A stretch of DNA of 64,000 bases from an uncultured bacterium (GTDB taxonomy: Bacteria > Babelota > Babeliae > Babelales > Babelaceae), in assembly GCA_963824495.1 (NCBI GenBank), contig CAWGPQ010000006.1:32001-96000 (forward strand), written 5' to 3'. Made by a program: the position numbers and the translations under genes. The notes beneath the pieces are model-generated. The model had not been told where the DNA came from. It made no database searches and worked only from the letters and a program-made list of their open reading frames with translations. Numbering within the stretch: position 1 is the stretch's first letter; every line of letters starts with the position of its first letter. Positions 28,034 to 53,340 of this stretch are shown piece by piece.

Positions 28034-28034
28034 A

Positions 28035-28118
28035 ATGATAAATTTCGTAACAATCTGCAAGGGTTTGCGTATAGGTGAAGTGATTTCAGCATATCCTCTA
28101 ATCAAAAGTGCATTATGA
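28035..28118 (+). pseudogene. Vestigial toxin C-terminal tip (27-aa mini-ORF)
   Basis: MINFVTICKGLRIGEVISAYPLIKSAL* matches toxin end LGEMTSAYPIISLRKL*; ATGA overlap with the next gene. Confidence 0.7.
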
Positions 28119-33925: not shown

Positions 33926-34726
33926 ATGATGTATAAATTTTTGAACGCAGTGATATTGATAGCAGTATGCTTAATGTATAGCACGTATGCTCTTACACTT
34001 CAAGGTACTATTCGAGAGCTTGATCAAATATGGGTGCTATCAGAATATCTTGAAGATCTACATATATTTGAGCACATGTCTGCCAAGCAAGAAGAACAGA
34101 TATATGATCAGCATCAGCAATTATTAGGGTTGCTTCCGCTCTATCTAGAAAAATGTGGTGATGCATGTATTAGCTATGATCATGAAAAGCACGCATCGAT
34201 TTTAAACTCACCTGCATTATTACTTAAAATTGTACAATCTGTTAAGATATCCGCTCGCGTATATGATGAAAAAACTTTTGGTGATCTATCTATCCGTGAT
34301 CTTATGAGGCATGCATCGATTTTAAAATCGCCTGAATTATTACTTAAAATTGTACAATATGTTAAGATGTCCGCCCGTGTATATGATGACGAAACTTCGT
34401 CTATAGCTTTTGATGATGTACTTATTCGTGATTTTAGACACCTTATGCGTCTAAAATACACTATGACAGGTATTAAGTCGGTTATCGAAAACCAAGCAGA
34501 TACTGTGCAAGCACGTTTGAAGTTATGGCCATCCTTGCTCAGCTATATACAGCATCATGCTGCTTGGTTTATAACGTATGCTCAAGATAGTTATGCTCGA
34601 TTATTTGATAAGTATCAAGAACTTGAGGCACAAGTTGCATCGAGTATTATTGACTCCATGATCAAAAGTGACCAAATCTTTATTGATGACCTTACATGCG
34701 TAATGCATGAAGATATCTTAAAATAG
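33926..34726 (+). CDS. Hypothetical secreted protein with internal 40-aa duplication
   Basis: Signal peptide; HASIL.SP.LLLKIVQ.VK.SARVYD occurs twice. Confidence 0.7.
   Translation: MMYKFLNAVILIAVCLMYSTYALTLQGTIRELDQIWVLSEYLEDLHIFEHMSAKQEEQIYDQHQQLLGLLPLYLEKCGDACISYDHEKHASILNSPALLLKIVQSVKISARVYDEKTFGDLSIRDLMRHASILKSPELLLKIVQYVKMSARVYDDETSSIAFDDVLIRDFRHLMRLKYTMTGIKSVIENQADTVQARLKLWPSLLSYIQHHAAWFITYAQDSYARLFDKYQELEAQVASSIIDSMIKSDQIFIDDLTCVMHEDILK
34189..34449 (+). repeat. Imperfect tandem duplication, 120-bp offset
   Basis: GCACGCATCGATTTTAAACTCACCTG at 34189 vs GCATGCATCGATTTTAAAATCGCCTG at 34309. Confidence 0.9.
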
Positions 34727-36780: not shown

Positions 36781-37026
36781 ATGAGTAAGATAATTAGGAT
36801 TAGCGAAGAAGCTTATATCAAGCTCAGCGAGCTGGCGGAAGCGTTGGGCGCACCAAGAACGAGAGTAGTAGAAAAAGCTCTTGATAAATTAGCAGGTGAG
36901 CAACTTCTGAAAAGAGCTAATAGAGCTTATGAAGAGCTCATGAAAGATCCCCAAGCTTGGCAAGAAGAGCTTGAGGAGAGAAAAGACTGGGAAGCAACTC
37001 TAGGAGATGGCTTAGAAAGCTTATGA
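36781..37026 (+). CDS. Antitoxin (RHH-like) of a MazEF-type module
   Basis: IRISEEAY..L..LA, acidic C-terminus WEATLGDGL; GGAGG SD; overlaps toxin start. Confidence 0.85.
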   Translation: MSKIIRISEEAYIKLSELAEALGAPRTRVVEKALDKLAGEQLLKRANRAYEELMKDPQAWQEELEERKDWEATLGDGLESL

Positions 37027-37385
37027 GCACTCAAGTTAAACGACCTCTTCGTGGAGAAATCTGGTTGGTAAGCCTTGATCCTACGATTGGAAGAGAGCAA
37101 GCTAAAACTAGACCATGCGTTGTAGTATCGGCCGATGGCTTTAATAAGGGTCCTTTCGGCTTGTTTATAGTTATCCCTTTGACATCTAAAGATAAAAGAA
37201 ACCCCTTGCATATCCCTATCGATCCCCCTGAAGGTGGGCTTTTGGTCAAATCATTTGCTTTAACAGAGCATATACGATCTACGTCATATGAGCGTTTTTC
37301 TCATCGATCAATGGGAAGAGTGCATGATACTACGCTCAAAGCTATAGAGCATAGGCTCAAAATACTTCTAGGCTTTGATTTCTAA
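37023..37385 (+). CDS. mazF: PemK/MazF-family endoribonuclease toxin
   Basis: RGEIWLVSLDPTIGREQAKTRPCVVVS..FN, IPLTS. Confidence 0.93.
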   Translation: MSTQVKRPLRGEIWLVSLDPTIGREQAKTRPCVVVSADGFNKGPFGLFIVIPLTSKDKRNPLHIPIDPPEGGLLVKSFALTEHIRSTSYERFSHRSMGRVHDTTLKAIEHRLKILLGFDF

Positions 37386-37583: not shown

Positions 37584-38891
37584 TTAAAATTCTCTACTGT
37601 CAAAATAAGAAAGATTCTCGTTTTTGCTGGTGCGCAGAGCTTTGTTGCGTAATTTTTTATGGTAACTGATAGCAAAATGGTGTGCGTAATCACGCAAGGC
37701 TATAAGCAGTTGACCTAGATCGGTAGCAAGATCAAGCTTGATTCCGTTGGGGGGTAAATTATGAGCAAAAAGCTGCTCTTCCCGTTTTGCAAGGCTTATG
37801 CATAGAGCAGAAGGAACTATCTGTTTGACTGCGCTTAGTTGGCCTTTGCCTCCATCAATTACTATAATGTCGGGCAGATCGTCATCATGTTTGTAGCGTC
37901 GCGAGACAATTTCTTGTAATGCAGCGTAGTCATTTTGTTCTTTAAGAGATCTAATGAGAAAACGTCGAAACTTATTCTTATCAGGCTGACCATCAGTAAA
38001 TCTGATACAGGAGCCTACAATATGAGTGCTCTGAAAATGCGAAATATCAAAGCAATCAAGGGTACGCGGTAGGTTAGGTAATTGTAAGAGTTTCTGGAGC
38101 TCGAGCAATGCGAAAGAGAATGCAGAAGCTGGACGACGGAGAAGGGTAGCATGCTCAATTTCTTTTGCGTACTTTTGTTCTGAAAAGCGTGTTTTAAGTG
38201 TTTCAAAAATAGTAGCAAAGTTTTTTTGATATTCGCTTAAATGCTTTGATTTCTCAAAATCTAAGTTTTTATTATGATACATGATCTGTTCTTCTAGTAA
38301 CGCTAGAAATTGCTCGTGGTTGCCCTTGAGTGCTTCATGAGCGAGCTTGACATGCAATCGATACTCATCGGGGTTAAATGTCGTCGTACAATTTCCAGCG
38401 CATCGGTCAAGATGATAATCAAGGCACCCTTCTTTAATAGAACTTTTACAGAGCTTAAGGCGAAACGTACGTACCAAATAATCGTAGCCATTACGTACAT
38501 CATGTTTACTCATGAATGGGCCGAAATAGATACCCTTCTCTTGTTGTACTCGGACAAGCTTAAATTCGGGTAACTCAGCATCAGTGATCAACACATACAT
38601 AAATGGATTGCCACTTTTAAGTAAAACATTATATTTTGGCTGATAATCGCGGATAAGTTGAGCTTCTAGGAGTAATGCTTCTGTCTCGTTTTTGGTCACG
38701 ATATAGTCGACCGTAGCATGTTCTTTGATAAGCTCGTTAATTTTCCAATCAGTGTATCGCTTGGCAAAATATGATGCAACTCGCTTATATAATGACTTGG
38801 CTTTGCCAATATAAATAATCGTATGAGCACTATCTTTAAATAGATAGACGCCAGGTAATGTAGGTATATTTTTGAGTAGAGGAGTGCTCAT
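37584..38891 (-). CDS. uvrC: Excinuclease UvrC, short form lacking the C-terminal HhH domain
   Basis: PGVYLF..IYIGKAKSL (GIY-YIG), CFDISH, PDIIVIDGGKGQL, RDYAHHFAI. Confidence 0.92.
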   Translation of the reverse strand: MSTPLLKNIPTLPGVYLFKDSAHTIIYIGKAKSLYKRVASYFAKRYTDWKINELIKEHATVDYIVTKNETEALLLEAQLIRDYQPKYNVLLKSGNPFMYVLITDAELPEFKLVRVQQEKGIYFGPFMSKHDVRNGYDYLVRTFRLKLCKSSIKEGCLDYHLDRCAGNCTTTFNPDEYRLHVKLAHEALKGNHEQFLALLEEQIMYHNKNLDFEKSKHLSEYQKNFATIFETLKTRFSEQKYAKEIEHATLLRRPASAFSFALLELQKLLQLPNLPRTLDCFDISHFQSTHIVGSCIRFTDGQPDKNKFRRFLIRSLKEQNDYAALQEIVSRRYKHDDDLPDIIVIDGGKGQLSAVKQIVPSALCISLAKREEQLFAHNLPPNGIKLDLATDLGQLLIALRDYAHHFAISYHKKLRNKALRTSKNENLSYFDSREF

Positions 38892-38984
38892 TGCTAAAGA
38901 TTTCCCTTGTACTAGTAAGATATACTAAAAGTATAGCTTATATTAAAAGTTTGTAAATAAAATATCGTTGAACGGCCTCTAAAA

Positions 38985-39653
38985 TTAGCCCTTGAAAACG
39001 CCCTCAAATACGCATCCTGAAAGTGGCATGCGATGAGAAGGAAATTCGCGCTTACGTAAGTACTCAGGTAGATCTTTGGGATTGCCCTGTCTTCCAATAG
39101 CAACCATTGCCTCTACTTTATAGTTGGCTGGTATCTTGAGTTCTTTGGCTGCTTGATCGTAATCAAAACCACCAATGCCATGGATGACAAGGCGGGGGAT
39201 ATCTGCCCCTTGGAGCGCAAGATTTTCCCAGGCAGCACCTGTATCAAACGAATGGGTAGTTGAATTCTTGTTCGAAATAATCACAATAAGCGCTCCAGCT
39301 TTGTCTGCCCATTTTTTATTTCCTGGAGCAAGTAGGTTAAAAAAGCGATCCCAATCATCTGTGCCGGCCAAAGCATAAATAAACCCCCACGGCTGCTTAT
39401 TATCTGATGAGGGAGCCCATCGTGCTGCTTCAAAAAGCTGCATAAGCTCGTCACGTGTCACGGGCTCGCCGGACATAGCATAGGATGACCATCGTTTAAG
39501 AAAAAGTTCATTGATAGGATGACTTGCTTGGCGTTTGAACTTCTTTTCTTGCAGAGCTGTTTTGTGTGCTATTGCGTATGTCATACATGGCAACAAAAAT
39601 AAAAATACATAATATAGCATGTTTTTTATACTCATCTTATCTCTCCTTATCAT
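38985..39653 (-). CDS. Nitroreductase family protein with signal-like N-terminus
   Basis: KRWS, AARWAPSS.NKQPW, FDTGAA, GGFD, AIG. Confidence 0.92.
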   Translation of the reverse strand: MIRRDKMSIKNMLYYVFLFLLPCMTYAIAHKTALQEKKFKRQASHPINELFLKRWSSYAMSGEPVTRDELMQLFEAARWAPSSDNKQPWGFIYALAGTDDWDRFFNLLAPGNKKWADKAGALIVIISNKNSTTHSFDTGAAWENLALQGADIPRLVIHGIGGFDYDQAAKELKIPANYKVEAMVAIGRQGNPKDLPEYLRKREFPSHRMPLSGCVFEGVFKG

Positions 39654-39954
39654 ATGGGCTCCTGTTTTTAACTATACCCTTTTGTGAGTACTTTCTGCAA
39701 TACTTGAAAGTGCTTTTATTAAGATCTAGAGCTATTAATAAGCACTGTGTTATCGATAATGGTGCTCTGGTGGAGGCTATTATGAGTGATCATCTATTTA
39801 AGCAGGCTCCACGTAAGGTTTAATACACATATTATTAATTTGCATAAATTTTTTATAAATTATAAACTATTGAATTTTATATTGGAAATTTTATATAGTA
39901 AATAGTAGTAGGGCCAAAACTATTGAATAATATTAAAAAATAGGTCAAATTATC

Positions 39955-40671
39955 ATGTTTTTAAGTGATGTAAAAGTTGCGCTTATACTACTTATCGTCT
40001 TATATAGCGTGCAACTGAAGGCACCCGATGGCTTACCCTCTGGCATACCGCCGGAAATGGCGGATTGGCTTGAATTTGGGCTAAGACCTCCGCAAATAGA
40101 AGCCCTCTTGGAAGCTGAACAGAGACGGCTTGAGCGAGCCCTAGCTCGAGAGCAGTTAACCGAGGCTGAGATCGAAGAGTTAGAGAAAGCTGGGGCTTTT
40201 ACCTCACGTTCCACTGCTCAAGATGTAGAAAAAAATCTGCTTGATTTTAATGAGAAATTAAAAAATGACTTCCATAACTACTATCAAGGGCATGTTATTA
40301 CCGTTAAGCAGTTCAATGCTTTGCTGAACCGTATGAAAGAAATTAGAAAATCTGAGGCTGGCAAAACTTTAGAAGAACTTACAAAGTTACGCCAAGATCT
40401 GAATCCTGAATTGAAGATTCTTTATAATGAGGGCCTTAAAATAAGGCAAGACCTTGATGCCCAGATAATTCAAGTTAAAAACATAATTTCTTCTGCTGAA
40501 GAATTCTTTAGAAGTATCCCACCTTATCCTGAATTAGGTGATGTTCGTAGTCAAGCTCGGACGATGCTTGATTATATACGTAATTTTTATAGCTCAGAGT
40601 TTTCTCAAGAAAGGTTAAAAGTAATCAATGGCATACTTGATACTATAACTAAAAGTCTTGAACAATTTTGA
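39955..40671 (+). CDS. Tandem secreted paralog P1
   Basis: Signal peptide-KAPDG; PPE..WL..GL.P.Q; LEAE.RRLERALA; IPPYPELGD. Confidence 0.85.
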   Translation: MFLSDVKVALILLIVLYSVQLKAPDGLPSGIPPEMADWLEFGLRPPQIEALLEAEQRRLERALAREQLTEAEIEELEKAGAFTSRSTAQDVEKNLLDFNEKLKNDFHNYYQGHVITVKQFNALLNRMKEIRKSEAGKTLEELTKLRQDLNPELKILYNEGLKIRQDLDAQIIQVKNIISSAEEFFRSIPPYPELGDVRSQARTMLDYIRNFYSSEFSQERLKVINGILDTITKSLEQF

Positions 40672-40686
40672 AGAATAAGGAGAAAA

Positions 40687-41415
40687 ATGAATAATTACAA
40701 AATATTAAATAGCCCGATAGTAATAACTGTCTTACTTGTTATAGGGCTCAGCGTTAGAATCAAAGCACCGGATGGTTCATTTTCTGGAATCCCACCGGAG
40801 GTGGCAGTATGGCTTCAATCTGGGTTGACGCCTGAGCAACAAGCGACCCTGTTTGAAGCCGAAAAGAGACGACTTGAGCGGGCTCTGGCTCAAGAGCAGT
40901 TAACGGAAGCTGAGATTAAAGAATTAGAACTCAGTGGAGCATTTCAAGCACGTCCTACTGAGCAAGATATAGCTGAAAAACTGTTTGCCTTTTCTGAGCG
41001 CTTAAACAAGGACATCCATGACTATTATGAAGCTAATCGGATTACTGGTGCTCGACTTGCAGACTTGCTGGATTGGATGGTAAATATGGCCGAAGCAGAA
41101 ATGTATAAAATAACTCCGAAAGCACTTAAGGAATTCAGGGAAAGCTTACGTGCTCAATTGCTGGGAGTCTATGAGGAGGCTGGTGCCGTCGGCAAGGAAC
41201 TTGAAATGGAGCGAAAATGGGTTGAAGACATAATGCTTAATGCTCAAGACTTTCTGCACGCTATTCCTCCTTATCCTGAACTTACTGATATTCGTGGTGA
41301 GGCTCAGGAATTAGTTGATCGAGTGCATAAGCTGTATAAGACGGCGTCTTTTGATGCGAGAGCAAAAAGGATCAAAGGGATACAGGAAGATGTAGCACAA
41401 AGGTTTAGTCCCTGA
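40687..41415 (+). CDS. Tandem secreted paralog P2
   Basis: Same motifs; AAGGAG SD. Confidence 0.85.
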   Translation: MNNYKILNSPIVITVLLVIGLSVRIKAPDGSFSGIPPEVAVWLQSGLTPEQQATLFEAEKRRLERALAQEQLTEAEIKELELSGAFQARPTEQDIAEKLFAFSERLNKDIHDYYEANRITGARLADLLDWMVNMAEAEMYKITPKALKEFRESLRAQLLGVYEEAGAVGKELEMERKWVEDIMLNAQDFLHAIPPYPELTDIRGEAQELVDRVHKLYKTASFDARAKRIKGIQEDVAQRFSP

Positions 41416-41432
41416 GGTAAAGGGTAAAAAAT

Positions 41433-42152
41433 ATGAGAATATATGCCACGTTAAAAAATAGCCTTGCACAAGTAACCATCTTACTTAGTATTCTAACGAA
41501 TTTTAACATTAAAGCACCTGATGGTTTATCTTCTTATACTGTACCACCAGAGATAGCAGTTTGGCTGTCAACTGGCTTGAGCCCCGAGCAGCAGGCAGTT
41601 CTCTTAGAAGCTGAAAAGAGACGATTTGAGCGTGCTCTAGCTCAAGAGCAGCTAACTGAGGCTGAGATCAAAGAATTAGAGAAAAGTGGAGCGTTTCAGG
41701 CACGCCCTACCATTCAAGATCTTACTAACGCTTTAGATATTATTAAAAAGTGGGCTTGGCAGGTTCTGAAGAGTCAGCTGCAACTCCTGAATCTCATGAG
41801 TGCTAGAGGAAAAGAGCTTCTATATTTGCTTCAAAAAATAGCGAAATCTAAAGAACTTGAAGAATCTAAAGCAAATCTACAGCGAGAACTTGAACTTATT
41901 TCTAATGAAGCTACTCAGCACATAAAAAACCTTAGCGAAATGTATGAGGAGCGTAAGGCTCTCGTAGCAGAAGTACAAGATTTTATACGTACTATTCCGC
42001 CTTACCCCGAGCTGGCCCAAGTTCGCGATGAAGCTCGCAACATAGAGGAAAGTCTTGCATTAACAATAGGGTCTAAAAAAATTGCTAGCCTTATGCAGGA
42101 TATGAATCGCATACAACATGAAGCAGACGAATTGAGTAGTATATTATTTTGA
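41433..42152 (+). CDS. Tandem secreted paralog P3
   Basis: Same motifs. Confidence 0.85.
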   Translation: MRIYATLKNSLAQVTILLSILTNFNIKAPDGLSSYTVPPEIAVWLSTGLSPEQQAVLLEAEKRRFERALAQEQLTEAEIKELEKSGAFQARPTIQDLTNALDIIKKWAWQVLKSQLQLLNLMSARGKELLYLLQKIAKSKELEESKANLQRELELISNEATQHIKNLSEMYEERKALVAEVQDFIRTIPPYPELAQVRDEARNIEESLALTIGSKKIASLMQDMNRIQHEADELSSILF

Positions 42153-42176
42153 TTTTTGATTAAGAAAGAAAAAGAC

Positions 42177-42914
42177 ATGAGCAAGCAATTCTTTTTAATA
42201 GCAGCAAAAAGCAATCTAGCACAGGTAATTGTTGTACTTATTGTCCTGATAAATTTTAGCATCAAAGCACCTAACGGGGTACCGCGTTCTGGCATACCAC
42301 CAGAAATAGCAGCATGGCTTGCAACTGGCTTGAGCCCCGAGCAACAGGCAGCTCTGCTTGAAGCCGAAAAGAGGCGGCTTGAGCGGGCTATGGCTCAAGC
42401 GCAGTTAACTAAAGCCGAGATTAAAGAATTAGAGAAAACTGGGGCTTTTACAACGCGCCCTACTGTTCAAGATATCGAGCAAAGATGGGCTAATTTTGTT
42501 GAAGAAATGCAACAGAACGTCAATAACTATAATCAAGCTCATACTGCGACTGTTGATCAACTCAACAACTTGTTGGAGCGCTTGATAAAAATTGACAAAG
42601 CAGAGGCTTCCCAAACTCCAGAACAACTTAAGAAGATGCGTCATGACTTACATGATGAATTTCAGCAACTTGATAACCAGGCTCGTGCGGTAAGAGATGA
42701 GCTTGAAGTACAGCTCAGGCAATTTGAAAACATGATCGTTGCTGCGGAAGACTTTTTGCAGGCCATTCCTCCTTACCCTGACTTAGGTGATACACGTCAG
42801 CGTGCTCGGCAGTTACTTAACCAGTTACATGTATTTTATCGTCCAGATACTTTTAATTCAAGAATGAACGCCATCAAAAATGTGCGAAAAACTTTAGCAC
42901 AAAAGCTTGGCTGA
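42177..42914 (+). CDS. Tandem secreted paralog P4
   Basis: Same motifs; ATG 42177 preferred over TTG 42156. Confidence 0.85.
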   Translation: MSKQFFLIAAKSNLAQVIVVLIVLINFSIKAPNGVPRSGIPPEIAAWLATGLSPEQQAALLEAEKRRLERAMAQAQLTKAEIKELEKTGAFTTRPTVQDIEQRWANFVEEMQQNVNNYNQAHTATVDQLNNLLERLIKIDKAEASQTPEQLKKMRHDLHDEFQQLDNQARAVRDELEVQLRQFENMIVAAEDFLQAIPPYPDLGDTRQRARQLLNQLHVFYRPDTFNSRMNAIKNVRKTLAQKLG

Positions 42915-42928
42915 TAGGGGTAACTCAT

Positions 42929-43614
42929 ATGAAGGTGAAGACATATGCTATATGGGTAGTTATTCTGGGTGTTTGTGCTATAAGCTTCGATAGTAAGTGC
43001 CCTAACGGTTTACCTTCCAGTATATCTCATAGTACGCCGCCAGATATAGCTGCATGGCTTGAAACTGGATTGAGACCTGAGCAAAGGGCAGCTTTACTAG
43101 AAGCTGAAGAAAGAAGGCTTTCGCGGGCTCTATTTGGAGAGATACAATTATCCGACGCAGAGATTGAAGCGTTAGAGAAAAGTGGCGCGCTTCCATCAAC
43201 CATTCAAAGAGGTGGTGAGCTAGACCTAACAAGATATGATATTCTGTTCTGGAACTTAGTGAATAGGGTAGATATTTTTCAACAAACTCTTAAAATCTTA
43301 CAGATCAAGTTGTGCTCTTGCTTAAGCAGGTTAAAGAAATTACGCCTGCAGAGGCTCAAGAATTATTAAGAGATAGTACGCGTCGCGTGACAAGGTTTTC
43401 CAACAGGCTCACTATTATTTTTAGCGAGCGCAAGGCGCTTATTGGAGATCTTGAAGAGCTTATATATGAAATGCCTCCTTATCCAGGCCTTGCTGATAGG
43501 CGAGACCAAGTTAGGCAGTTGCTCGGTACGGTTAATAACAGCTATCAGGTTATTGATGAGCTCAAGCGCGATATTGAAGGAGTCCGTGTATTTGTAAACA
43601 AACAACTTATATAG
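42929..43614 (+). pseudogene. Tandem secreted paralog P5, frameshift at ~43292-43295
   Basis: N-terminal motifs in 42929-43369 and MPPYPGL in 43312-43614; one extra A in the A4 run joins them. Confidence 0.8.
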
Positions 43615-43629
43615 AAATAGAAAGAGGAA

Positions 43630-44361
43630 ATGTCTATGTACGAATTTTTAAAAAATAGACCGGCACTGGTAATTATTTTGCTAAGTGCAGCGATAAGTTT
43701 TACAAGTAAAGCCCCCAATGGCTTAGCCTCTCTGCGGCCACCAGAGATAGCAGCCTGGCTTGCAACTGGCTTGAGCCCCGAGCAACAGGCAGCTTTGCTT
43801 GAAGCCGAAAAAAGACGGCTTGAGCAAGCTCTAGCTCAACAACAGTTAACTAAAGCCGAGATTAAAGCATTAGAGAAAACTGGGGCTTTTGCGACACGCC
43901 CTACTGCTCAAGAATTAGAAGAAAGATTAGACGAATTACGTGCTCTATTAAAAGGAGATCTCGATGATTATGGTCAAGCTCGCGATGTTACTCTTCATCA
44001 GTTTCAAAATTTACTGAATCGAATGACAGAGATTATAAAAGCAGAGACTAATAGAACTCCAGGAGAAGTTCAAAAAATTCGCCAAGCATTAAGACCCGAG
44101 TTACAAACTATATACGATCAGGTTTTAAAAATAAAAGATGATTTTGAAGAACAACAAGACCTGCTTGAAACTATAATTTTAGATGCTGAAGAATTTCTAC
44201 AAACAATCCCGCCCTACCCTGAATTAGGTGATGTGCGTGGACGTGCTCGGGAAACGCTTGATAGCATACGTCAACTTTATAATCCAGGGTTTCTCGAGAA
44301 TAAGTTAAAGCACATAAAAATTATACAGGAAATTATCAATAAGATGCTTGAAAATGCTTGA
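43630..44361 (+). CDS. Tandem secreted paralog P6
   Basis: Same motifs; GAGG SD. Confidence 0.85.
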   Translation: MSMYEFLKNRPALVIILLSAAISFTSKAPNGLASLRPPEIAAWLATGLSPEQQAALLEAEKRRLEQALAQQQLTKAEIKALEKTGAFATRPTAQELEERLDELRALLKGDLDDYGQARDVTLHQFQNLLNRMTEIIKAETNRTPGEVQKIRQALRPELQTIYDQVLKIKDDFEEQQDLLETIILDAEEFLQTIPPYPELGDVRGRARETLDSIRQLYNPGFLENKLKHIKIIQEIINKMLENA

Positions 44362-44428
44362 AAAAAATTATTAGAAGACCTGAAGACGAGGCCTCTCTTC
44401 CGAAAACTTTTATGAATTTATTTTTTTA

Positions 44429-44519
44429 AAATATTGCATATTTGATTTATTTCATGATAACCTGGTAAATAGTAAAGTGTATGTTGTCTTTTGCTGTATG
44501 GCAAACTGTGACTATTCTT
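44429..44519 (+). promoter_or_regulatory. Duplicated promoter/leader segment, copy A (upstream of P7)
   Basis: AAATATTGCATATTTGATTTATTTCATGATAACCTGGTAAATAGT..GCTGTATGGCAAACTGTGACTATTCTT, closely similar to 45327-45421; TTGCAT -35 and TG-GATAAC -10-like. Confidence 0.65.
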
Positions 44520-44543
44520 AAGAAGAATAATGGGGGTATAGCG

Positions 44544-45263
44544 ATGTATAAATTTTTAAAAAATAGCCCAATACTGGTAATTATTTTGATAAGTGCAGCA
44601 ATAAGTTTTACAAGTAAAGCACCCGACGGTTTAGCTTCTCTGCGGCCACCAGAAATGGCAGCTTGGCTTGAATTTGGGCTCAGGCCTGCGCAAACAGAAG
44701 CACTGTTAGAAGCTGAAAAGAAACGGCTTGAGCGAGCTCTAGCTGAACAACAGCAGTTATCTGAGGCTGAAATTAAAGAATTAGAGAAAATGGGGGCCTT
44801 TGCGGCACGCCCGACTCTTCAAGAACTAGAAGAAAGGTCAGAGAAATTAAGCGCTCTATTAAAAGGTGCTCTAGATAATTATGAGCAAGCTCATGATGCT
44901 ACGGTTAATCAGCTCCGAGATTTGGTGAATCGAACGGGAAACATTATCAAGCTAGAGGCTCATCGAAGTCCAGAAGAAGTTCAAAAAATTCGCCAAGCAT
45001 TAAGACCCGAGTTACAAACTCTATATGATCAGGCTTTGAAGATAAAAGATGATCTTGAAAAACAACAAGAGCTACTTAAAACTATACTTGCAGATGCTGA
45101 AGAATTTTTACAGGCAATCCCACCTTACCCTGAATTAGGTGATATTCGTGGTGAAGCTCGAGAAATGCTCGATGGCATGCATAAATTTTATGATCAAGCA
45201 TCTCTCGATAAGGCGAAGTTTATACAAATTATAGAGAAAATTATCAATAAGGTATCGGGCTAA
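44544..45263 (+). CDS. Tandem secreted paralog P7
   Basis: Same motifs; ATG 44544 (MYKFLKN aligns with P6 MYEFLKN). Confidence 0.85.
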   Translation: MYKFLKNSPILVIILISAAISFTSKAPDGLASLRPPEMAAWLEFGLRPAQTEALLEAEKKRLERALAEQQQLSEAEIKELEKMGAFAARPTLQELEERSEKLSALLKGALDNYEQAHDATVNQLRDLVNRTGNIIKLEAHRSPEEVQKIRQALRPELQTLYDQALKIKDDLEKQQELLKTILADAEEFLQAIPPYPELGDIRGEAREMLDGMHKFYDQASLDKAKFIQIIEKIINKVSG

Positions 45264-45326
45264 GATTATTAGAAAATTCAGGTGTAACTCAGCGCAAAGT
45301 TCTATTTTTAAGAAATAAAATTTATA

Positions 45327-45421
45327 AAATATTGCATATTGAATTTATTATATGATAATCTAGTAAGTAGTGGGTGGATAGGTCGCATTTTTCGGCTGTA
45401 TGTCAAAATGTAACTATTCTT
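45327..45421 (+). promoter_or_regulatory. Duplicated promoter/leader segment, copy B (upstream of small peptide ORF)
   Basis: AAATATTGCATATTGAATTTATTATATGATAATCTAGTAAGTAGT..GCTGTATGTCAAAATGTAACTATTCTT. Confidence 0.65.
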
Positions 45422-45453
45422 TTGTTTTAATAAAAAACTAGAGGAGAGTAATC

Positions 45454-45585
45454 ATGATTAAGAAGTTTTTAGCACTTACTTTATTAGCACTATCTATTAC
45501 CACCGGTTTATTTGGCTGGGGTTGTCGCCGATGCTGTAATGGCGGTGATTGGTGGAATGTAAGTGAAATGTCCTCGTCACGTTAA
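45454..45585 (+). CDS. Unannotated 43-aa secreted Cys/Trp-rich peptide
   Basis: GAGGAG SD at 45441; MIKKFLALTLLALSITTGLFGWGCRRCCNGGDWWNVSEMSSSR*. Confidence 0.65.
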   Translation: MIKKFLALTLLALSITTGLFGWGCRRCCNGGDWWNVSEMSSSR

Positions 45586-45632
45586 AATCTTGTACTACAT
45601 ATCTATATACCACATGAAGAGAATAAGTAATG

Positions 45633-45657
45633 AGGAGAGCTTTTAAGCTCTCCTTTC
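45633..45657. terminator. Hairpin between convergent transcription units
   Basis: AGGAGAGC-TTTTAA-GCTCTCCT followed by TT. Confidence 0.6.
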
Positions 45658-45677
45658 GTGTAATTTTATATGCAATG

Positions 45678-48600
45678 TTACCAACCGCCTTCATTGTCGC
45701 TTGCGTTTACTTGGCGTTGGGAAATACTTTGTGCCGGAGGTGGTGGAGGTGGAACATTAATTATAGTTGATGGTGGTGCTTGAGGAGTGCTTATATTTTG
45801 CTCATTTGTCGATATGGGCGGTGGAGCAAGGGGAGCAGAAGGTTTTGTTGCTGCAGGATGTTGGGTGGCTTGCTGTGTTTTTTGATAAGCTGCTTGGGCT
45901 GTTTCAATCGCATCAACTAACTCTTTTCTTAATGGGCCATAGACTTGTTGATACGTACTGAGCTGGTCCGTATAGCCACTTTCGATAGGTTGAGTGCTGG
46001 CTTTGCTGTATAAAAGACCACTTACGAGACTTACCATACCCGTAATAGATGGATTATAAGGCACACCGGTACCGGGAGAGCGTGCTATGGTGTTATCTGG
46101 GTTAAGGGGAGCCATAAGAACATAGTCTTTGGGTACTGCTGATGTGGTTGTTGTATAGATAAAATTGCCCTGTTGTATATCTTCTATACCTGTTGCTGAG
46201 AGGGTAAACGAATCGAATTTATAAGGGCCCAGGAGGGCTTGGGCATGGGTAGTTTGTGCAGTGTTTATTTGATGAATATTAGCAGTACTTATGGTTGGAC
46301 GCGCATTTTTATAGATATTCCATACATTACCGAGATGTAAGGGCAATTGGGTGCCCGATGCATCAAATACATCCCCAGATATAAGGCTTATGAGGCCCGT
46401 TGGTGAGGCTGAGGGACTTGCTCCAAGATCGGTAACGGTAGGTGGGGTAGTTTGATTGACATTACCAAATATAACGTAATCCTGAGGTAATTTGCCAGCC
46501 ATTTGCTGAGCGAGAGGCGTAGCACGGGTTGTATAGATATAGTTTTCTTTAAGAAGTTCATTGGTATCAAGGGCAGTGGGGGAAAATGATCCAAACTCGG
46601 GATGTTGCATCGAGCTAAAGGTTGCCTGTGCTGTTTTTTCACGGTTTACTTCTAATGCTCCTTGATAGGGCGGGTATACGTTATCAATTACCTGATAGGT
46701 TTTTTGGTCATTTGGTGTTAATATCTCGCCTTCAAGTGATGCTCCCGTAAAAATAATGCCCATAGTTTTCTGAGACGTTGGCGTAATTGATAGGGTTACT
46801 GGCGGCGGCAGGGGATCTCCCTCGCGCCATACTTGTACCGTTAGGTTGCGAGCGTTAAGCGTGGCTCGTATGTGATACCAGGTGCCTATATTAAAAGGAG
46901 GTACGGTAAAATTATTAGGTATCCAACCCTGAGTAGCTTGATACGTATCACTTTCATGTTCATATATACCTAATGAGACAGGGAGCGTAGCTGATTCTTT
47001 TTTAAACACAATCATTTTTGCTAAATGCGCACGATCAGGATCTGCTTGTCGTGTTGTCATAAGGGCAGCTTGGTTAAGGGGATTGCCACCAAGATATAAC
47101 CCAGCATAAAAAGACTGTAAAAGATAGATTGGTTTAAATCGCAGTTCAACCGATAGAGGTTGATCGATATTCTGATCGAGATCTTTAGTACTATTTTGAA
47201 GAAACCAGAACCGTGAAGCTTGCCCTCCAGGCACCGTGACACTTGCTGGACTGACAGCAATCTCTTGAGATATCTTTTGACGTGAAGGTGCGTATATGGC
47301 AAATCCTTGCGAAGGGTTAAGGTTAAGCCAGCCGGTACGGTAACCATACAGTGAGCCGATATCCCCCGGTGTCATCGTAACAGGTTGCACAGCACCGACA
47401 GGCTGTTGAGCATAGGGTTGAGGTGTCAAAAGAGCTGCCTGATACGAGCCTAAGAGAGAGCTTTTTTGAGAAAGAAGACCATTGAATGTGCTATTTAAGA
47501 AATTTTCATAAAAGCCGAGCATGCGCTCACGATTGGATAGTTCTGCCTCAAATTTTTTATTAAGCTCAGTACTTATAGCAGTTTGTTGATAGGTTGTTAT
47601 TGCTTCTTTATTCTGAGTCCAAACTCTAAAATTTTGGACATATTCATGTGTTTCTTGTTTAAGCTGCTCTACCTGTATATCTTCTTGAGCACCGCTTGTG
47701 ATCATAAGACTACCAAAACCGAGTGCTAAGACAAGCCCGGGTATAAGTTCTACCCCAGTGCCTCCCGTAGCAACCGTAAGCCCTACAATAAGCCCTGTAG
47801 TGATAACTTGAGCGATAAGGCGGCGGTGAGTCCCTATTTGAGTTTGTGCTTGAGCATAATAGGTAGCAAAGTTTAAACCCGAGCCACCGAGTTTATAAGC
47901 AACATAATCTATTGACGCTTCTACACCGGCACCGATATCGATAACAAGATCGGTAAGTAACTTAATTAAATAGCCACAGGTTTGAATAAGGCTTGTAATA
48001 GCTTCAGCTGCTTTGGCACCAATAAACGTAATTTCTGATAACACCGAGCTTAGAATACTGAGCCCAAGTTGTCGAAAGCCAGGCCCCAATGTTTGGGGAC
48101 CGCTTAATCCTAATACAACGTTACTTATGAGCGATATTGCTTGAATGCTCAGCCTACATTCATTTTGAAAGACTAATCCACCAATCTCAAAAGGGGCAGC
48201 TATAACATCGGCTACCGTGTCAATTAATGAGCTCCACAGCATGTTGACGTCAGTGCTGAGTTTGGGATCATGCAAAATATTCGTGCCAATAGCCTGCATA
48301 ACGAGGTAAAGACCTCCATAGCCATAAGGCGTGAGAATTACTGCGTTCGTAATAATAGTTTTAATAGCAGCTTGAAAGCTTGAAAAATCAGCACGTGCTG
48401 CGTCTTGATATGCTTGAGCTAACTGTTGAGCAGTCTGGGGTGGTAGGCTTTGAATGCGTTGTGCAAGACCAGAAGAGTAATAGAGCGTAAGTGTTTCATC
48501 TTTGGTTATTTCTGCTACATCTTGAGCACTTGCATAGAGAGCTTCCCCTGTTTGCTGGATTTTTCGCCAAACGTCAGACCCTGTTGCTTTTACCCAATTT

Positions 48601-49913
48601 AAAGTAGCTTGTTGTACTACAGCAGTGGCAGGAGCAGTAGTAAGAGCAGTGGACTGTGCTGCTGGTAATACCGTTTGTTGAACCGTTTGTACTTGACCCG
48701 TGCTTGCTTGAGGTAGTTGACGTAGTGTTGTAGCACTATCACGTATATCGAGAAGATAATTGTAATCGTTAGGTGTATAAGGTAAAAAAGAGGGTGATGG
48801 TTGTTGCTTGGCCACACGTAAGATGCGCATGGTGGCATCAAGTGCATTGCCTTGAAAAAGATCAGCCGTGAGCGCTTGAAGCGTAAGGAGCATACTTAAG
48901 CAGGTTACTTGCTCTGCTGTAGGTGATGGTACAGGGATATTTTTAAAAGTTATAGTTTTGTTATCGGCATCAAGCTGAAAGGGGCTTGTGGCACCTCGAG
49001 AGGTGATGTCGCTCAATGTTGCGGCGGTGGTATAAAAAGGGGTAGCAGTAAAAGCAGCAATAGCCTTAAGAAGTTGGTTTGCGTTGCTTATGCCCCGCCA
49101 ATCGGTGCATTGGGCAAGCATACGATTGCGTGTGTGCTCACTTACAATTAACGAAGCTTGAGTAATTTGCGAGGATAATCGTAATTGCGTAAAATCTGGA
49201 TTAAAGTAGGCAACTTCAATAGTGGGCAAATACTTAAAAAGAGAGCGTTCGTTCTCGTAGCGTGCTACTAAGAGTCCTTGATCGAGATCAATAGTTTTTT
49301 TAATAATAAACTTTGCGTAATTCTGCCAAAAAGAAGAATTTACTATATCAGACGTAGTTACCGTAAGAGCTGTCCAAAACGAAGTATCGATAAGAGTGTC
49401 CCAGGATTTGTGTTCTTGAGTGTAGGAAAGTCTTAGTGCGCTATCAAGAAGGTCCCAGCTTGATGCACTTGGAAGAGGGAGTTGAGCCTGAGCTTGTGAT
49501 GCTACAAGTTTGCCCCAGTCATATGTTACTACACCGTTAGTAATCGTGGCGAGTAATGCCGGGAATGCTTTTCCTGACTGTTGAGCAAGCGTGATGAGTT
49601 GTGCTGCGCGCTCACGCTTAACGACATATTCTAAATAAAAATAAAAGTAATTGATATACGTTAGAAGCTGTGGCTGAACGTTAAGTCCCGAGGGGCCAAA
49701 GAGTGACGTTATCGCTTCAGTATGTATGGATGTAATTGATTGTCCTGGTGCTGGAGTTAACAGTTTTTGTGCTACGTGACTGATAGCAGCAGCCTGTTGT
49801 TTGTTTTGTTGCTCAGCAAGAGCAATTTCTGTTGTAAGTTGTTCCTGCGTATATGCATAATCTGCTAGGGCTGCGAGAGTAAAAAGAACTATAATTTTTA
49901 TATATGGTATCAT
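45678..49913 (-). CDS. Large secreted hypothetical protein (1411 aa): central hydrophobic helices, coiled coil, ConA-like beta-sandwich, two C-terminal repeats, Pro-rich tail
   Basis: Signal peptide; IAQVITTGLIVGLTVATGGTG..LVLALGFGSL; FNIGTWYHIRATL..LTVQVW; two YTT..DYV..SL.SG repeats. Confidence 0.8.
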   Translation of the reverse strand: MIPYIKIIVLFTLAALADYAYTQEQLTTEIALAEQQNKQQAAAISHVAQKLLTPAPGQSITSIHTEAITSLFGPSGLNVQPQLLTYINYFYFYLEYVVKRERAAQLITLAQQSGKAFPALLATITNGVVTYDWGKLVASQAQAQLPLPSASSWDLLDSALRLSYTQEHKSWDTLIDTSFWTALTVTTSDIVNSSFWQNYAKFIIKKTIDLDQGLLVARYENERSLFKYLPTIEVAYFNPDFTQLRLSSQITQASLIVSEHTRNRMLAQCTDWRGISNANQLLKAIAAFTATPFYTTAATLSDITSRGATSPFQLDADNKTITFKNIPVPSPTAEQVTCLSMLLTLQALTADLFQGNALDATMRILRVAKQQPSPSFLPYTPNDYNYLLDIRDSATTLRQLPQASTGQVQTVQQTVLPAAQSTALTTAPATAVVQQATLNWVKATGSDVWRKIQQTGEALYASAQDVAEITKDETLTLYYSSGLAQRIQSLPPQTAQQLAQAYQDAARADFSSFQAAIKTIITNAVILTPYGYGGLYLVMQAIGTNILHDPKLSTDVNMLWSSLIDTVADVIAAPFEIGGLVFQNECRLSIQAISLISNVVLGLSGPQTLGPGFRQLGLSILSSVLSEITFIGAKAAEAITSLIQTCGYLIKLLTDLVIDIGAGVEASIDYVAYKLGGSGLNFATYYAQAQTQIGTHRRLIAQVITTGLIVGLTVATGGTGVELIPGLVLALGFGSLMITSGAQEDIQVEQLKQETHEYVQNFRVWTQNKEAITTYQQTAISTELNKKFEAELSNRERMLGFYENFLNSTFNGLLSQKSSLLGSYQAALLTPQPYAQQPVGAVQPVTMTPGDIGSLYGYRTGWLNLNPSQGFAIYAPSRQKISQEIAVSPASVTVPGGQASRFWFLQNSTKDLDQNIDQPLSVELRFKPIYLLQSFYAGLYLGGNPLNQAALMTTRQADPDRAHLAKMIVFKKESATLPVSLGIYEHESDTYQATQGWIPNNFTVPPFNIGTWYHIRATLNARNLTVQVWREGDPLPPPVTLSITPTSQKTMGIIFTGASLEGEILTPNDQKTYQVIDNVYPPYQGALEVNREKTAQATFSSMQHPEFGSFSPTALDTNELLKENYIYTTRATPLAQQMAGKLPQDYVIFGNVNQTTPPTVTDLGASPSASPTGLISLISGDVFDASGTQLPLHLGNVWNIYKNARPTISTANIHQINTAQTTHAQALLGPYKFDSFTLSATGIEDIQQGNFIYTTTTSAVPKDYVLMAPLNPDNTIARSPGTGVPYNPSITGMVSLVSGLLYSKASTQPIESGYTDQLSTYQQVYGPLRKELVDAIETAQAAYQKTQQATQHPAATKPSAPLAPPPISTNEQNISTPQAPPSTIINVPPPPPPAQSISQRQVNASDNEGGW

Positions 49914-49921
49914 GGCTGTGC

Positions 49922-51730
49922 TCAGGGACTAGCTAATGATTTTTGGAAATTTTCACGTTGCTGCTCTGTATAGGTTAATGCTGCCGGCTGGATAATCTTA
50001 AACGACGCTTGGCAACCAGGTGCCATAAATCCTATGCCATGATACCAAAAGAGCATCTGGCTTTGATGAGGGTCCATAGTAGTCACTTGTGTGGTATAGA
50101 GCTGTTGCAGCTCATTGTCTATACGCTGAGCAAAAATAATTCCTATGGTCAGCAGATCATTAGTAATGGTAATGACAAATGACAAGGGATCTTTTCCAAG
50201 AGCCTGTAGTGTTTTTGGGTTAAGCATATAAAGTGCTTGCGTGGTGGGGTTTATAATAGTTGCTAATGCTGGTGTTACGGTCACGGTACCCTGTGCAGTT
50301 GTTATAGAACTCTGGCCAAATTTCAGCTCAACGCTTCTGTTGTTTTCAGTTCCAGAACCATACAAGCCTAAGAGTCGGTATTGGTACATGCGCTCAGAGC
50401 TTCCTGAAAGCCAACGTGCTTTATTGAAGAGTATTCCAGCAAAAAAAGATGGATTGGCGCTAATCAATGTAAGCTCTATTTCTATAGTATACGGATGAGT
50501 GCCTGTAATAAATTCAGTAAATATCGAATTTTGCATACCACGATAAAGAGCATCGGCAGTTGTGGCAGCTTCCCAGGGGATACGTTTACGTTGCACAAAG
50601 CTACCTGTTGCCGCATCATATTCCCAATCGCCTGGACCTTGATAAAGATTATACCACGTAAAAGGTGACGCTGGTGTCAGCATAGACGATGCTTTGAAGA
50701 CTTGATCATATATAACAGGATTGCTTACATAGGTGCTTTGAGGCAGATCAAGATTAATAGAACGAGAAAGATACGTAATTTCTTGATTAAGTTGTGTAGT
50801 TGCTGCGGTTATCTGTGAACTGAGATACTGAAGCTTTTGTAAATAGGCCGTGCTTTGCGTAGTAATAAGCACTTTGCTGCTTTGGGCAAGTTGAGTTTGG
50901 AATGTGCTAAAGCTTTGTTGGAGTGATATCAGATCTTGCTTAATTTGATTATACTCTTTTTTGTCTTCTGCACTAAAAAGTGACTCTGCAAAGCTTTCGC
51001 CGGTAAATACTGACATTTGAAGTGCTAGGTCTACCAGTGTTTCTAAGAATTGGATACGAGGGCGCTGAGTTGCCAGCTGAGCGTAACTCAGCACATGTTG
51101 TTGCTCTACTGGGTCACGCCATGTTGCCATAAGTTCAGGTAATGGTGTGATAGTTTGGGCGATAAAAAATGTACGTGCTTGTGCGTAATCAGTAAGTATA
51201 TCTGATTGCTCAATCTCATAATACTCGAGGAGAAGATGTGCTAAAGCAGATACTCTGTGAGCACGTGAAGCTGGAAGCTGAATCTTTTGTAAAAAGCTCA
51301 AGTGTCGTTGAGCAGTACGAGCACAAAATTGTCTTAGATATTTTCTATAATGGTCAAGTAGTTCTTTCTTATAAACGTGCTCTAAACTTTGGAGGGTGTG
51401 CTGCTCCGTTTTGCGCTCCAACTCATGTGTCATAGCAGCGTGCTTTTGATTAATCGCACGGTAAACAGCTTGAGCAGCTCGACACTGTTCTTGGTCAGAG
51501 CTTGTCAAAAGAAGATATATAAGCTCTTGTATTGTTGTAAGGCTAGTTGCTGATACATGAAGGCCTGATTGCTCAAAGATTTTTATTGTTTGGGCTTGAG
51601 CTTGAAGTTCAAGTTTTTTATCATATTTTTTATCATATTTTTTATCATGAGCTGGCGCCCCCCGAAGATCAATAATAATGGTTATTATAACCATAACACA
51701 AGGGGATATATACGTTATAGCGTAGTTCAT
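49922..51730 (-). CDS. Secreted hypothetical protein (602 aa): coiled coil plus beta-rich C-terminal domain
   Basis: Hydrophobic N-terminus; Gln-rich heptads; GDWEYD, FFAGILFN, GIGF. Confidence 0.8.
   Translation of the reverse strand: MNYAITYISPCVMVIITIIIDLRGAPAHDKKYDKKYDKKLELQAQAQTIKIFEQSGLHVSATSLTTIQELIYLLLTSSDQEQCRAAQAVYRAINQKHAAMTHELERKTEQHTLQSLEHVYKKELLDHYRKYLRQFCARTAQRHLSFLQKIQLPASRAHRVSALAHLLLEYYEIEQSDILTDYAQARTFFIAQTITPLPELMATWRDPVEQQHVLSYAQLATQRPRIQFLETLVDLALQMSVFTGESFAESLFSAEDKKEYNQIKQDLISLQQSFSTFQTQLAQSSKVLITTQSTAYLQKLQYLSSQITAATTQLNQEITYLSRSINLDLPQSTYVSNPVIYDQVFKASSMLTPASPFTWYNLYQGPGDWEYDAATGSFVQRKRIPWEAATTADALYRGMQNSIFTEFITGTHPYTIEIELTLISANPSFFAGILFNKARWLSGSSERMYQYRLLGLYGSGTENNRSVELKFGQSSITTAQGTVTVTPALATIINPTTQALYMLNPKTLQALGKDPLSFVITITNDLLTIGIIFAQRIDNELQQLYTTQVTTMDPHQSQMLFWYHGIGFMAPGCQASFKIIQPAALTYTEQQRENFQKSLASP
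51614..51649 (+). repeat. In-frame 12-bp tandem repeat x3 (DKKY)
   Basis: TTTTTTATCATA x2 + TTTTTTATCATG. Confidence 0.9.
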
Positions 51731-53340
51731 GGTGTAGTACTAGGTTGGTTTTCAAGTTGCTCAAGTGCTTGTTGTTCTTGAAATTGATCGGGCTCCAATT
51801 GTGGCTGACTAGCAGCTAAAGGCTGTACGGGCTGTTGCTGAAATAGATTGTTATCTTGAACAAATTCTTGCTGTGCTTGCTTAATTAAAGCAGTATAATC
51901 ACTGCATTGTTGAGAGCTTAGTGTGCCAATTTTGCTTCCCGTAACTTGAGTAATAAGATTTTCAAGACAAGGATCTAGGATGCCAAGACCTAGTATTTGA
52001 GTAAAATCTCCTAAGCATGCTCGTAAGATTTGTAGTATGCCTGCTCGTGTATTGAGCCAATCAGGTTGCACGGCAACCTCTTGCTCATAGAGATTGTTAT
52101 GAGTAGGAATATTAACGCAGAGCTTTACAGCTTGTGCTTGATTTTGTGTTATGGAGCCCTGAGCATCTTTAAAATAAGCGATAGGGTAGCCTAGTGAAGC
52201 ATGTTGTTTAGTTACCGCTTGTGTGCCTGCTTGAGCAAGTTTGATAAGATGGGCAGGCCAGCCAATTGATCGTACCCCCTTTGGCAACTCCGTGGCCGCT
52301 TGAAGTATACTATTCAGTGCCTGTAAGCTTTCTGGCGTATAAGAAAAGAGTGATGGGGTAACCCGCTTGTAGCCTCGTAATTGACTAACGGCAGTTTGTA
52401 TGTCTTCCAGGGTCTTTGGTGGCTGTTGTGCTAAAGCTTGCGATCGCTTAATGCTCGGATTGTTTGCCAGTACCCGAGCAACAGATTGTGCATAGGTGGC
52501 GAACTGGCTTTGACCAGGAATTTGACTAGCACTATCAAGATAGCTTGTATACGCAGAAAAGAAAGTAAGATATGCCTGAAGTGCAGAACGATATGTTGTC
52601 TGAGCTGCTTGAACTACTTTATGTATAGTTTGTTGCTCTGGAGTAGCTGGTGTGTCACCCGAGAAAAATTGTTCTTCTTGGTTTTCAAGCAAGAAATTAA
52701 TATCAGCGCCATAATCGTGGCTTATAAGAATATTACCGGTAGAAAGTGTTAGCTGAGGTGGTAATAGAGGAAAATAGGTTTGAATTGCTTGATGTAATTG
52801 TGCTTGAACAATGGTTAAAAGGTGCTGAAGTATATATGCTTTTTTATTAAGAGCATACATGGCTTCAGTTTCTAAATGGGCCAGAGGCGTATCGGTATGT
52901 GTCAGATTAAATGTGGTGTAAATGCTTACCAAGTAATAAAAAAGATCATGGAGAGCAAAAAACTGTACTTTACGCACATAAGCAACTGCTTGAGGGGCTT
53001 TTTGTAGGCTTGCCAAGAGTCCATTGAAACTTGCGGCAAGGGCAGCATTATCGAAAAGCTCGCTTCCCGATGGATGATTGACATAGAGATGGGAGTTCAG
53101 TGTAAAGCTTACGGTAGCTCGTTGAGTTCCTAAATTCCAAGCAAAAGGCATACGGTTTTTATTATGAGCATTAGGCTTTATGAGTCGTGAGCCATCGGGG
53201 GTTACATAGCGTACTGCATATTGCGCAGGCGTTAAGTTGAGCGCTGGGGCTACAGATGCTTGCTGGCTTACTGCTTGGCCTATGATAAGATGTGTGATAA
53301 GACTGAAACTAACTAAGCTGCTCCTTTGTACCCACCGCAT
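51727..53340 (-). CDS. Secreted hypothetical protein (537 aa), first gene of the three-gene operon
   Basis: Signal peptide, AAGGAA SD; ATGA overlap with the next gene. Confidence 0.8.
   Translation of the reverse strand: MRWVQRSSLVSFSLITHLIIGQAVSQQASVAPALNLTPAQYAVRYVTPDGSRLIKPNAHNKNRMPFAWNLGTQRATVSFTLNSHLYVNHPSGSELFDNAALAASFNGLLASLQKAPQAVAYVRKVQFFALHDLFYYLVSIYTTFNLTHTDTPLAHLETEAMYALNKKAYILQHLLTIVQAQLHQAIQTYFPLLPPQLTLSTGNILISHDYGADINFLLENQEEQFFSGDTPATPEQQTIHKVVQAAQTTYRSALQAYLTFFSAYTSYLDSASQIPGQSQFATYAQSVARVLANNPSIKRSQALAQQPPKTLEDIQTAVSQLRGYKRVTPSLFSYTPESLQALNSILQAATELPKGVRSIGWPAHLIKLAQAGTQAVTKQHASLGYPIAYFKDAQGSITQNQAQAVKLCVNIPTHNNLYEQEVAVQPDWLNTRAGILQILRACLGDFTQILGLGILDPCLENLITQVTGSKIGTLSSQQCSDYTALIKQAQQEFVQDNNLFQQQPVQPLAASQPQLEPDQFQEQQALEQLENQPSTTP

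Follow-up and report, generated by a model that had tools for sequence, protein, structure and literature searches.

What kind of protein is encoded by seven related genes that lie in tandem on a stretch of DNA from an uncultured bacterium, and how have these proteins come to agree so closely over one part of their length and so little over others? The genes occupy positions 39955-45263, on the forward strand, of a 64,000-nucleotide stretch of contig CAWGPQ010000006.1 (hereafter the window, meaning the whole stretch of DNA analysed). The original prediction, which drew on the letters of the window, described them as an exported family diversified by tandem duplication, and this description was borne out: leaders are present on 7/7 copies and all copies share one locus. 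Sequence comparisons point to a real, new orphan family, with no apparent sequence relationship to any described family. We regard it as about an even bet (a probability of roughly 0.5) that its members are Sec-exported, host-facing, non-enzymatic binding proteins, which evolved in a birth-and-death array and are found in one genome only.

The array consists of seven paralogous units, P1-P7, all on the forward strand as originally reported. Six are intact and encode 238-245 residues: P1 (39955-40671; 238 residues, with K-A-P at 40018 and PPYP at 40519-40530), P2 (40687-41415; 242 residues), P3 (41433-42152; 239 residues, its predicted helical bundle strongly diverged), P4 (42177-42914; 245 residues from the ATG at 42177), P6 (43630-44361; 241-243 residues, depending on whether the ATG at 43630 or that at 43636 is used) and P7 (44544-45263; 239 residues from the ATG at 44544). 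The predicted size of about 230-250 residues holds for these six and fails for P5 (42929-43614), in which a shift of one base, located at 43292 or just beyond it, leaves two open reading frames (ORFs) in different frames, 42929-43369 (146 residues) and 43312-43614 (100 residues). Left out of the family profile, the two pieces of P5 still match it with E-values of 1e-30 and 5e-9, which places the family far beyond chance. The break is spanned gap-free, with the same letters, by contigs of two sequencing runs, X1 (43218-43418) and X2 (43261-43569), X1 being possibly the source sample; a contig of a third run, X3, begins just 12 bases ahead of it. P5 is probably a recent pseudogene. Programmed frameshifting is not favoured, the unit having no in-frame X-XXY-YYZ heptamer and only a run of four A. 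The gaps from P1 to P6 measure 15, 17, 24, 14 and 15 bp, in agreement with the 14-24 bp given before, and P6 and P7 are separated by 182 bp.

Every copy has the same succession of parts: a leader, the motif K-[AC]-P-[DN]-G, a block of about 65 residues with three predicted helices, and a predicted four-helix bundle containing a PPYP turn. The leader followed by K[AC]P[DN]G, attributed earlier to each gene, was recovered in 7/7 array copies and in none of the other ORFs in our rough gene calls for the genome (1108 ORFs of at least 100 residues, about 280-330 of them with a leader-like start). Mean pairwise amino-acid identity over the seven copies, computed with X placed at the P5 break, is 38% for the leader, 69% for the block, 27% for the middle, 57% for the PPYP region and 23% for the C-terminal part, and the invariant columns number 28/76 in the block, 1/91 in the middle, 6/22 in the PPYP island and 0/38 in the C-terminal part. 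The conserved block is therefore present as described, save that its end is degenerate in P1 (GAF..RST) and P5 (GAL.PST), and PPYP is invariant across the copies, as had been stated. The earlier picture of constant ends holds for the N-terminal block and the PPYP island and breaks down at the C-terminus, the last ~37 residues being the most variable region of all. The mature part is acidic to neutral (isoelectric point 4.9-6.5), with no hydrophobic segment and no conserved Cys. Alpha-helical pore-forming toxins of the ClyA/Hbl type have a hydrophobic membrane-inserting segment in the mature chain; this candidate was rejected, as the maximal 19-residue hydropathy (Kyte-Doolittle scale) in the mature parts of the array proteins is only 0.46-0.87.

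The family also proved to be as unrecognised as had been proposed, profile searches of protein, genome and metagenome collections being blank beyond the array. A profile of the conserved block, whose comparison with proteins and metagenome-assembled genomes (MAGs) had been suggested as a check, gave no credible match outside the array, and in the 90%-cluster collection this profile, the whole profile and the longer proteins all returned the array's own proteins only. Among 1.84 billion representatives there were 9 matches, namely 5 array proteins and 4 repeat or coiled-coil proteins aligned at bundle positions only. When metagenome, genome and viral contigs were scanned for patterns, none of the candidate stretches was confirmed (0/598, 0/502, 0/601 and 0/554), and 40 relatives and 260 other genomes of the phylum contained no credible homologue. 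Weak matches to the block (E 0.017-0.059) and to the whole profile (E 6.5e-4 to 0.008) were each seen in 10 of these 260 genomes; at the 19 loci examined, one of which lacked a scorable ORF, neither KAPxG nor PPYP was present, and the matches were discarded. Some of them are presumably GyrA-like and ribosomal-protein-like sequences, and others are unrelated leader-bearing helical proteins. Elsewhere in the genome of the array there is no homologue, and the block is confined to the seven array genes; hence, contrary to one earlier suggestion, it is not a general export signal. Pfam, NCBIfam and PHROGs yielded nothing consistent across members, with Pfam scores below the cut-offs wherever these were shown, Rfam gave 0 matches in 38500-46500, and in open-access text we found no paper on the family.

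The genome is a MAG of 1.33 Mb with a completeness of 96.85%, and the runs holding the DNA are soil metagenomes, none of them listed as RNA. Its NusA is 64-72% identical to the closest matches, several of which are labelled Babeliaceae or Babeliales, and this sequence evidence places the host genome in Babelota/Babeliales. The Babeliales are a group of protist parasites. Tandem paralogy is common in the genome, which has 29 tandem clusters of at least 3 genes, 10 of them of at least 4, and is rich in ankyrin arrays; the seven-copy array ties for the largest cluster. The six intact genes do not stand out from the rest of the genome in codon usage or third-position GC content (z -1.1 to +0.2), and on these grounds recent horizontal transfer was rejected.

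In the explanation that we favour, the proteins would be exported through Sec and act outside the cell, at the interface with the protist host. The block would serve as a shared docking or self-association module, its invariant residues lying on one side of a long helix, and the bundle as a scaffold whose surface drifts under relaxed constraint. P1-P6 would be read as a single transcript, with P7 driven by a promoter captured in duplication, and unequal recombination would add copies while frameshifts remove them. Release past the outer membrane, through a secretin-based system or vesicles, and the binding of a host target would complete the scheme; these last steps are its weakest. Several points weigh against this explanation. 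It has to suppose expression, secretion past the periplasm and a host target. The block contains no eukaryote-like domain in Pfam or fold searches, and the bundle shows no positive selection, though host-facing families often do. None of the seven leaders reaches the threshold of a cleavage-site matrix trained on 70 sites of the same genome with Met at +1 (best 1.2-3.7 versus 4.4), and the type I signal peptidase (SPase I) of Escherichia coli is blocked by Pro next to the best (-3,-1) site; taken together, these two facts mean that the proteins may stay anchored in the membrane.

The leaders deserve closer scrutiny in this regard. They are 21-29 residues long and, by heuristic criteria only, 7/7 have a basic n-region and an uncharged run of 14-20 residues. 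The copies have a single (-3,-1) site in common, [LIS]-K-[AC], and in 7/7 the next residue is Pro. The earlier remark that a Pro in this place is atypical stands for the Pro itself, which occupies a position disfavoured by the E. coli enzyme; the cleavage site, for its part, is only an apparent one. Two reports describe Pro as avoided at P1' of SPase I substrates and as blocking the E. coli enzyme (PMC10269814, PMC2638155). The matrix favours different upstream sites in different copies, in every copy there are upstream sites that equal or exceed the shared one in score, and among 193 other candidate sites of the genome it gave Pro at +1 in 5; it is too crude to tell whether the peptidase tolerates Pro, cuts further upstream or leaves the leader in place as an anchor. 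The genome encodes one SPase I, at G000:C17:9859-10587, and two secretin-domain genes. A small residue followed by Pro at the apparent cleavage site was also seen in the Babeliaceae leaders at L054:8660, L056:43, G000 C17:4827-6959 and C8:9386, and such leaders hint that this lineage may tolerate Pro at +1.

The best-surviving alternative, unlikely but to be taken seriously, is that the leader is an uncleaved signal anchor with an N-in, C-out topology in the inner membrane or in vesicles, the block oligomerising the proteins into periplasm-facing helical assemblies of the envelope. The presence of Pro after a small residue in 7/7 copies, the uncharged 14-20-residue runs with a Pro/Gly-rich linker behind them, and the poor fit to the usual cleavage sites of the genome are all as such an anchor would have it. 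Yet every copy retains the (-3,-1) pattern, even P5 with its Ala-to-Cys replacement, as expected for a peptidase site, several copies have alternative cleavage sites upstream, and envelope proteins are usually conserved in relatives, whereas the array family is absent from the 260 other genomes searched.

An AlphaFold2 model of P1, built from six sequences, has a mean predicted local distance difference test score (pLDDT) of 73.5 and a predicted template modelling score (pTM) of 0.55; it places the helices of the block at 33-41, 45-67 and 70-78, with a pLDDT of about 55. Modelled alone, the block gave three extended helices (pTM 0.36, best Z 3.8) and is predicted not to fold compactly by itself. 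On its long helix the invariant Q, L, A, E, R and A face 180-280 degrees, and the block probably packs on a partner or on the helices that flank it. Five of the seven blocks matched, below the cut-off, the final two helices of a SAM-type Pfam model (profile positions 37-65), the best score being that of member 1 (E 0.003; 17.5 bits versus a cut-off of 27). The SAM domain is a compact domain of five helices, and no SAM chain appeared in the fold-search list for the block. The ESM Atlas gave one lead at 0.76 for the whole protein and nothing for the block.

These features, along with the tight operon-like spacing, recall a hetero-oligomeric filament, the second of the original suggestions, or a ring, polymerised through the block and with the bundles on its outer surface: a block that is predicted to lack a compact monomer fold while keeping a conserved helix face could polymerise, its interchange by gene conversion would keep the subunits compatible, and the SAM-type matches (5/7 blocks, best E 0.003) also speak for it. 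We nevertheless consider such a structure doubtful, given that pilin, flagellin, needle and ESCRT-III/PspA families are not matched above noise, that P5 was lost without visible effect on its neighbours, and that no assembly or secretion genes adjoin the array in the gene list of the window. Equally doubtful is a bolder version, in which K-[AC]-P-[DN]-G and the block form a new interchangeable assembly module that polymerises the six bundle subunits into a mixed polymer facing the surface or the vacuole; the module would then survive a Pro-blocked or Pro-tolerant signal peptidase step, and conversion would keep the modules compatible while the bundles diverge.

Conversion and selection could be assessed directly from the copies. 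The measurement of dN/dS along the gene, put forward earlier as a check, revealed purifying selection throughout: one-ratio omega is 0.27 in the block (p 7e-16, versus 1), 0.49 in the middle (p 2e-4) and 0.37 in the whole bundle (p 9e-13), and the corresponding IQ-TREE estimates are 0.29 for the block, about 0.55 for the middle, 0.21 for the PPYP island and 0.69 for the C-terminus. P6 and P7 are sisters in the bundle tree (98% bootstrap), yet over alignment codons 47-94 P6 matches P4 and not P7 (0/100000 permutations), in a tract of 19 consecutive informative sites, and with third positions this triplet ranks first of 107; the P4-like tract lies at ~43741-43890, and the nearly identical block of P4 at 42300-42449. 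P7 matches P1 over alignment codons 49-73 (1/100000 permutations), so that the start of its block is P1-like. In approximately unbiased tests the block tree was rejected by the bundle data (p 5e-5) and the bundle tree was nearly rejected by the block data (p 0.054). Gene conversion is thus strongest in the constant block, not in the variable part, and the constancy of the block is partly its product; with an omega of 0.27 and the conversion tracts, the block is both selected and exchanged.

A diversifying adhesin or antigenic-variation set, with the middle under positive selection for host specificities, is quite improbable in this light. It would account for a middle and C-terminus just 23-27% identical among the copies, and the neutral class of model M1a does hold about half of the bundle codons. 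However, omega lies under 1 and a positively selected class is lacking, model M2a giving no gain over M1a in the middle (p 0.59) or the bundle (p 1), with or without P5; this does not support the original prediction, taken as a middle driven to vary for specificity. As we are dealing with seven diverged paralogs, many pairs of which are near saturation, the power of these site tests is limited and weak site-specific selection could be missed. The lone M2a signal, in the block, came from two gap-adjacent columns of the N-terminal linker and vanished in the PPE-GAF core. Moreover, silent cassettes, invertible repeats and a recombinase were not seen at the array, and conversion is concentrated in the part of the protein that does not vary.

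The bundle itself is the better-modelled part of the protein (pLDDT mostly 78-93 per ten-residue segment). High-confidence helices span residues 88-134 and 139-187 and, after the PPYP turn, 192-211 and 214-236; the long ones show the strong amphipathicity, at 100-102 degrees, that a soluble bundle would have. Residues 88-236 are accordingly predicted to be a soluble bundle made up of two long and two short helices, all amphipathic, and PPYP is the predicted turn joining the second long helix to the first short one. In the fold search a designed bundle came out on top (Z 12.2, root-mean-square deviation (rmsd) 2.4 over 140 residues), followed by SPX domains, gp41 mimics, CorA, BAG and spectrin repeats; with this tool a Z under about 13 is in the range of common helical arrangements, and the lists name no specific family, though absence from them does not exclude one. 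Foldseek returned nothing at an E-value of 0.001 or better, and the best matches to the Protein Data Bank by sequence were designed bundles. The modelled fold is best taken as a common arrangement, not as a family assignment. SPX was considered because it accounts for 7 of the top 17 rows (Z 9.7-12.1, rmsd 2.9-3.9, 131-142 residues). That the proteins mimic a host protein of SPX-like or spectrin-like type, taken over from a eukaryote, is very improbable, since these rows and the fitting two-long-two-short helix order stand against the first rank of the designed bundle, Z scores proper to common helical arrangements, the blank Foldseek search, the lack of any Pfam match at E up to 1 to SPX (PF03105, which we take to be the SPX domain), the absence of an invariant Tyr/Lys cluster and a codon usage that is that of the genome.

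The latest duplication, which gave P7, involved a 908-bp unit comprising the P6/P7 gene and its downstream spacer. The first copy of this AT-rich spacer (44400-44525, forward strand) has a promoter-like TTGCAT..TGnTAAnnT ahead of P7, and the second (45300-45425, forward strand), about 900 bp further on, ends the duplicated unit. Behind the second copy lies a 43-codon ORF that is not a paralog (45454-45585, forward strand); it encodes a leader and three Cys, with the sequence GWGCRRCC and a short tail. This ORF was probably, judging by the arrangement, the original client of the spacer promoter, and as the spacer is duplicated with its second copy ahead of the ORF, P7 would have captured that gene's promoter. 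The genome has 9 occurrences of the TTGCAT..TGnTAAnnT pattern, of which 7 are intergenic, and a sigma-70 scan found no excess of sites (19 versus 14.2 +/- 4.1 in shuffles). Four more short ORFs with a leader and Cys residues were noted in the genome (C11:21545, C11:21825, C12:48914 and C17:88641), and these may possibly represent a class of small exported Cys peptides overlooked by gene callers.

The surroundings of the array are also populated by leader-bearing genes. Three large ones (1411, 602 and 537 residues), without a Pfam match, converge on it from the reverse strand at 45678-53340, and the 1411-residue gene has orthologues in 4/40 genomes of the family (23-40% identity). In the genome G045, the slot between uvrC and this orthologue is occupied by other leader-bearing genes, and in G019 three leader-bearing genes adjoin the orthologue; the slot hence appears to be a place of exported-gene turnover. 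Proteins from the slot in G019, G045 and G007 were not accepted as remote homologues of the array (hhalign probability 0.04-5.5%). Two small leader-bearing helical families lie beside the orthologue in G019 and G045 (L054:946-3673, L055:12318-14477 and L056:43-1281), and one of them was found in just 3/261 genomes (G019, G045 and G007). Other features of the window include a nitroreductase-family gene with a leader-like N-terminus (38985-39653, reverse strand), which has two more paralogs in the genome (C1, C19); an 81-residue ORF and a 120-residue ORF (36781-37385, forward strand), which from their sequence appearance we take to be antitoxin-like and PemK/MazF-like respectively; a leader-bearing ORF of 266 residues that contains a near-perfect internal repeat about 40 residues long (33926-34726, forward strand); and, at 25512-28510, a 695-residue leader-bearing ORF with what looks like a nuclease-toxin C-terminal tail, followed by two small paralogous ORFs (145 and 131 residues) with the look of immunity genes. 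Elsewhere, three IS5-type transposase ORFs of G+C-rich, proteobacterial-like appearance at a contig end (G000 C11:187607-190268) may be a binning contamination.

Why should such an array matter? In Babelota a large share of small genomes is given over to uncharacterised exported proteins. The array, though of limited reach as a single uncultured genome without relatives, illustrates cleanly the origin and turnover of genes of this sort: copies arise by duplication, probably with capture of a promoter, exchange their constant part by conversion and disappear by frameshift. Its invariant Pro, furthermore, bears on whether the signal peptidase of Babelota differs from that of E. coli, or whether proteins labelled as secreted are in fact anchored.

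Comparison with known systems helps to place the family. The two-long-two-short bundle of the P1 model superimposes on SPX domains (PDB: 5ijj, 8i6v, 7e40) at Z 11-12. A description of SPX gives a three-helix bundle with an N-terminal helical hairpin and a conserved Tyr/Lys site for inositol pyrophosphate (PMC8749416). The low-confidence N-terminal block of the P1 model lies outside nearly all aligned ranges. The array proteins have an exported leader, their sole invariant Lys lies in KAP and their sole invariant Tyr in PPYP, the second long helix ends without a Lys cluster, and the similarity is no better than that to designed bundles. Proteins of the Spy/CpxP/ZraP type, compared through Pfam scores, likewise have a leader and helices with L[ST]xxQ/E-like caps; the matches to PF13801 (Metal_resist) are weak and restricted to 2/8 array ORFs (P2, E 0.007; P4, E 0.03; 16.9 versus a cut-off of 29.2 bits), and the array protein is longer, with an extra bundle.

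Closer parallels are found in the mode of evolution. The lpl cluster of Staphylococcus aureus (Tsuru and Kobayashi 2008, PMC2568036) similarly comprises tandem exported paralogs with a conserved internal block that is the site of recombination. The array proteins are neither lipoproteins nor homologous to these, and only one strain is known for the array. The events also differ: the array tracts look like conversions inside the block, P6 being P7-like on both sides, whereas those described for lpl are single crossovers that keep 3'-spacer-5' units.

The nearest counterparts are the secreted ORFan and ankyrin families of Babelota itself. In Chromulinavorax destructans 44% of the coding sequences carry signal peptides, with an enrichment in ORFans (PMC6561590), Babela massiliensis has lineage- or species-specific secreted families (PMC4378268), and the core of the phylum includes type II secretion components (PMC4776705). 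Such families, as portrayed there, share with the array the signal peptides, expansion in one lineage, the lack of a recognisable catalytic domain and a small, host-dependent genome with Sec and secretins. The array differs from them in having no ankyrin, leucine-rich repeat or other eukaryote-like domain, and its leaders have Pro after the best-fitting site, where many other leaders of the genome have Met. The array is a new family, but the kind of expansion that it represents is common in Babelota.

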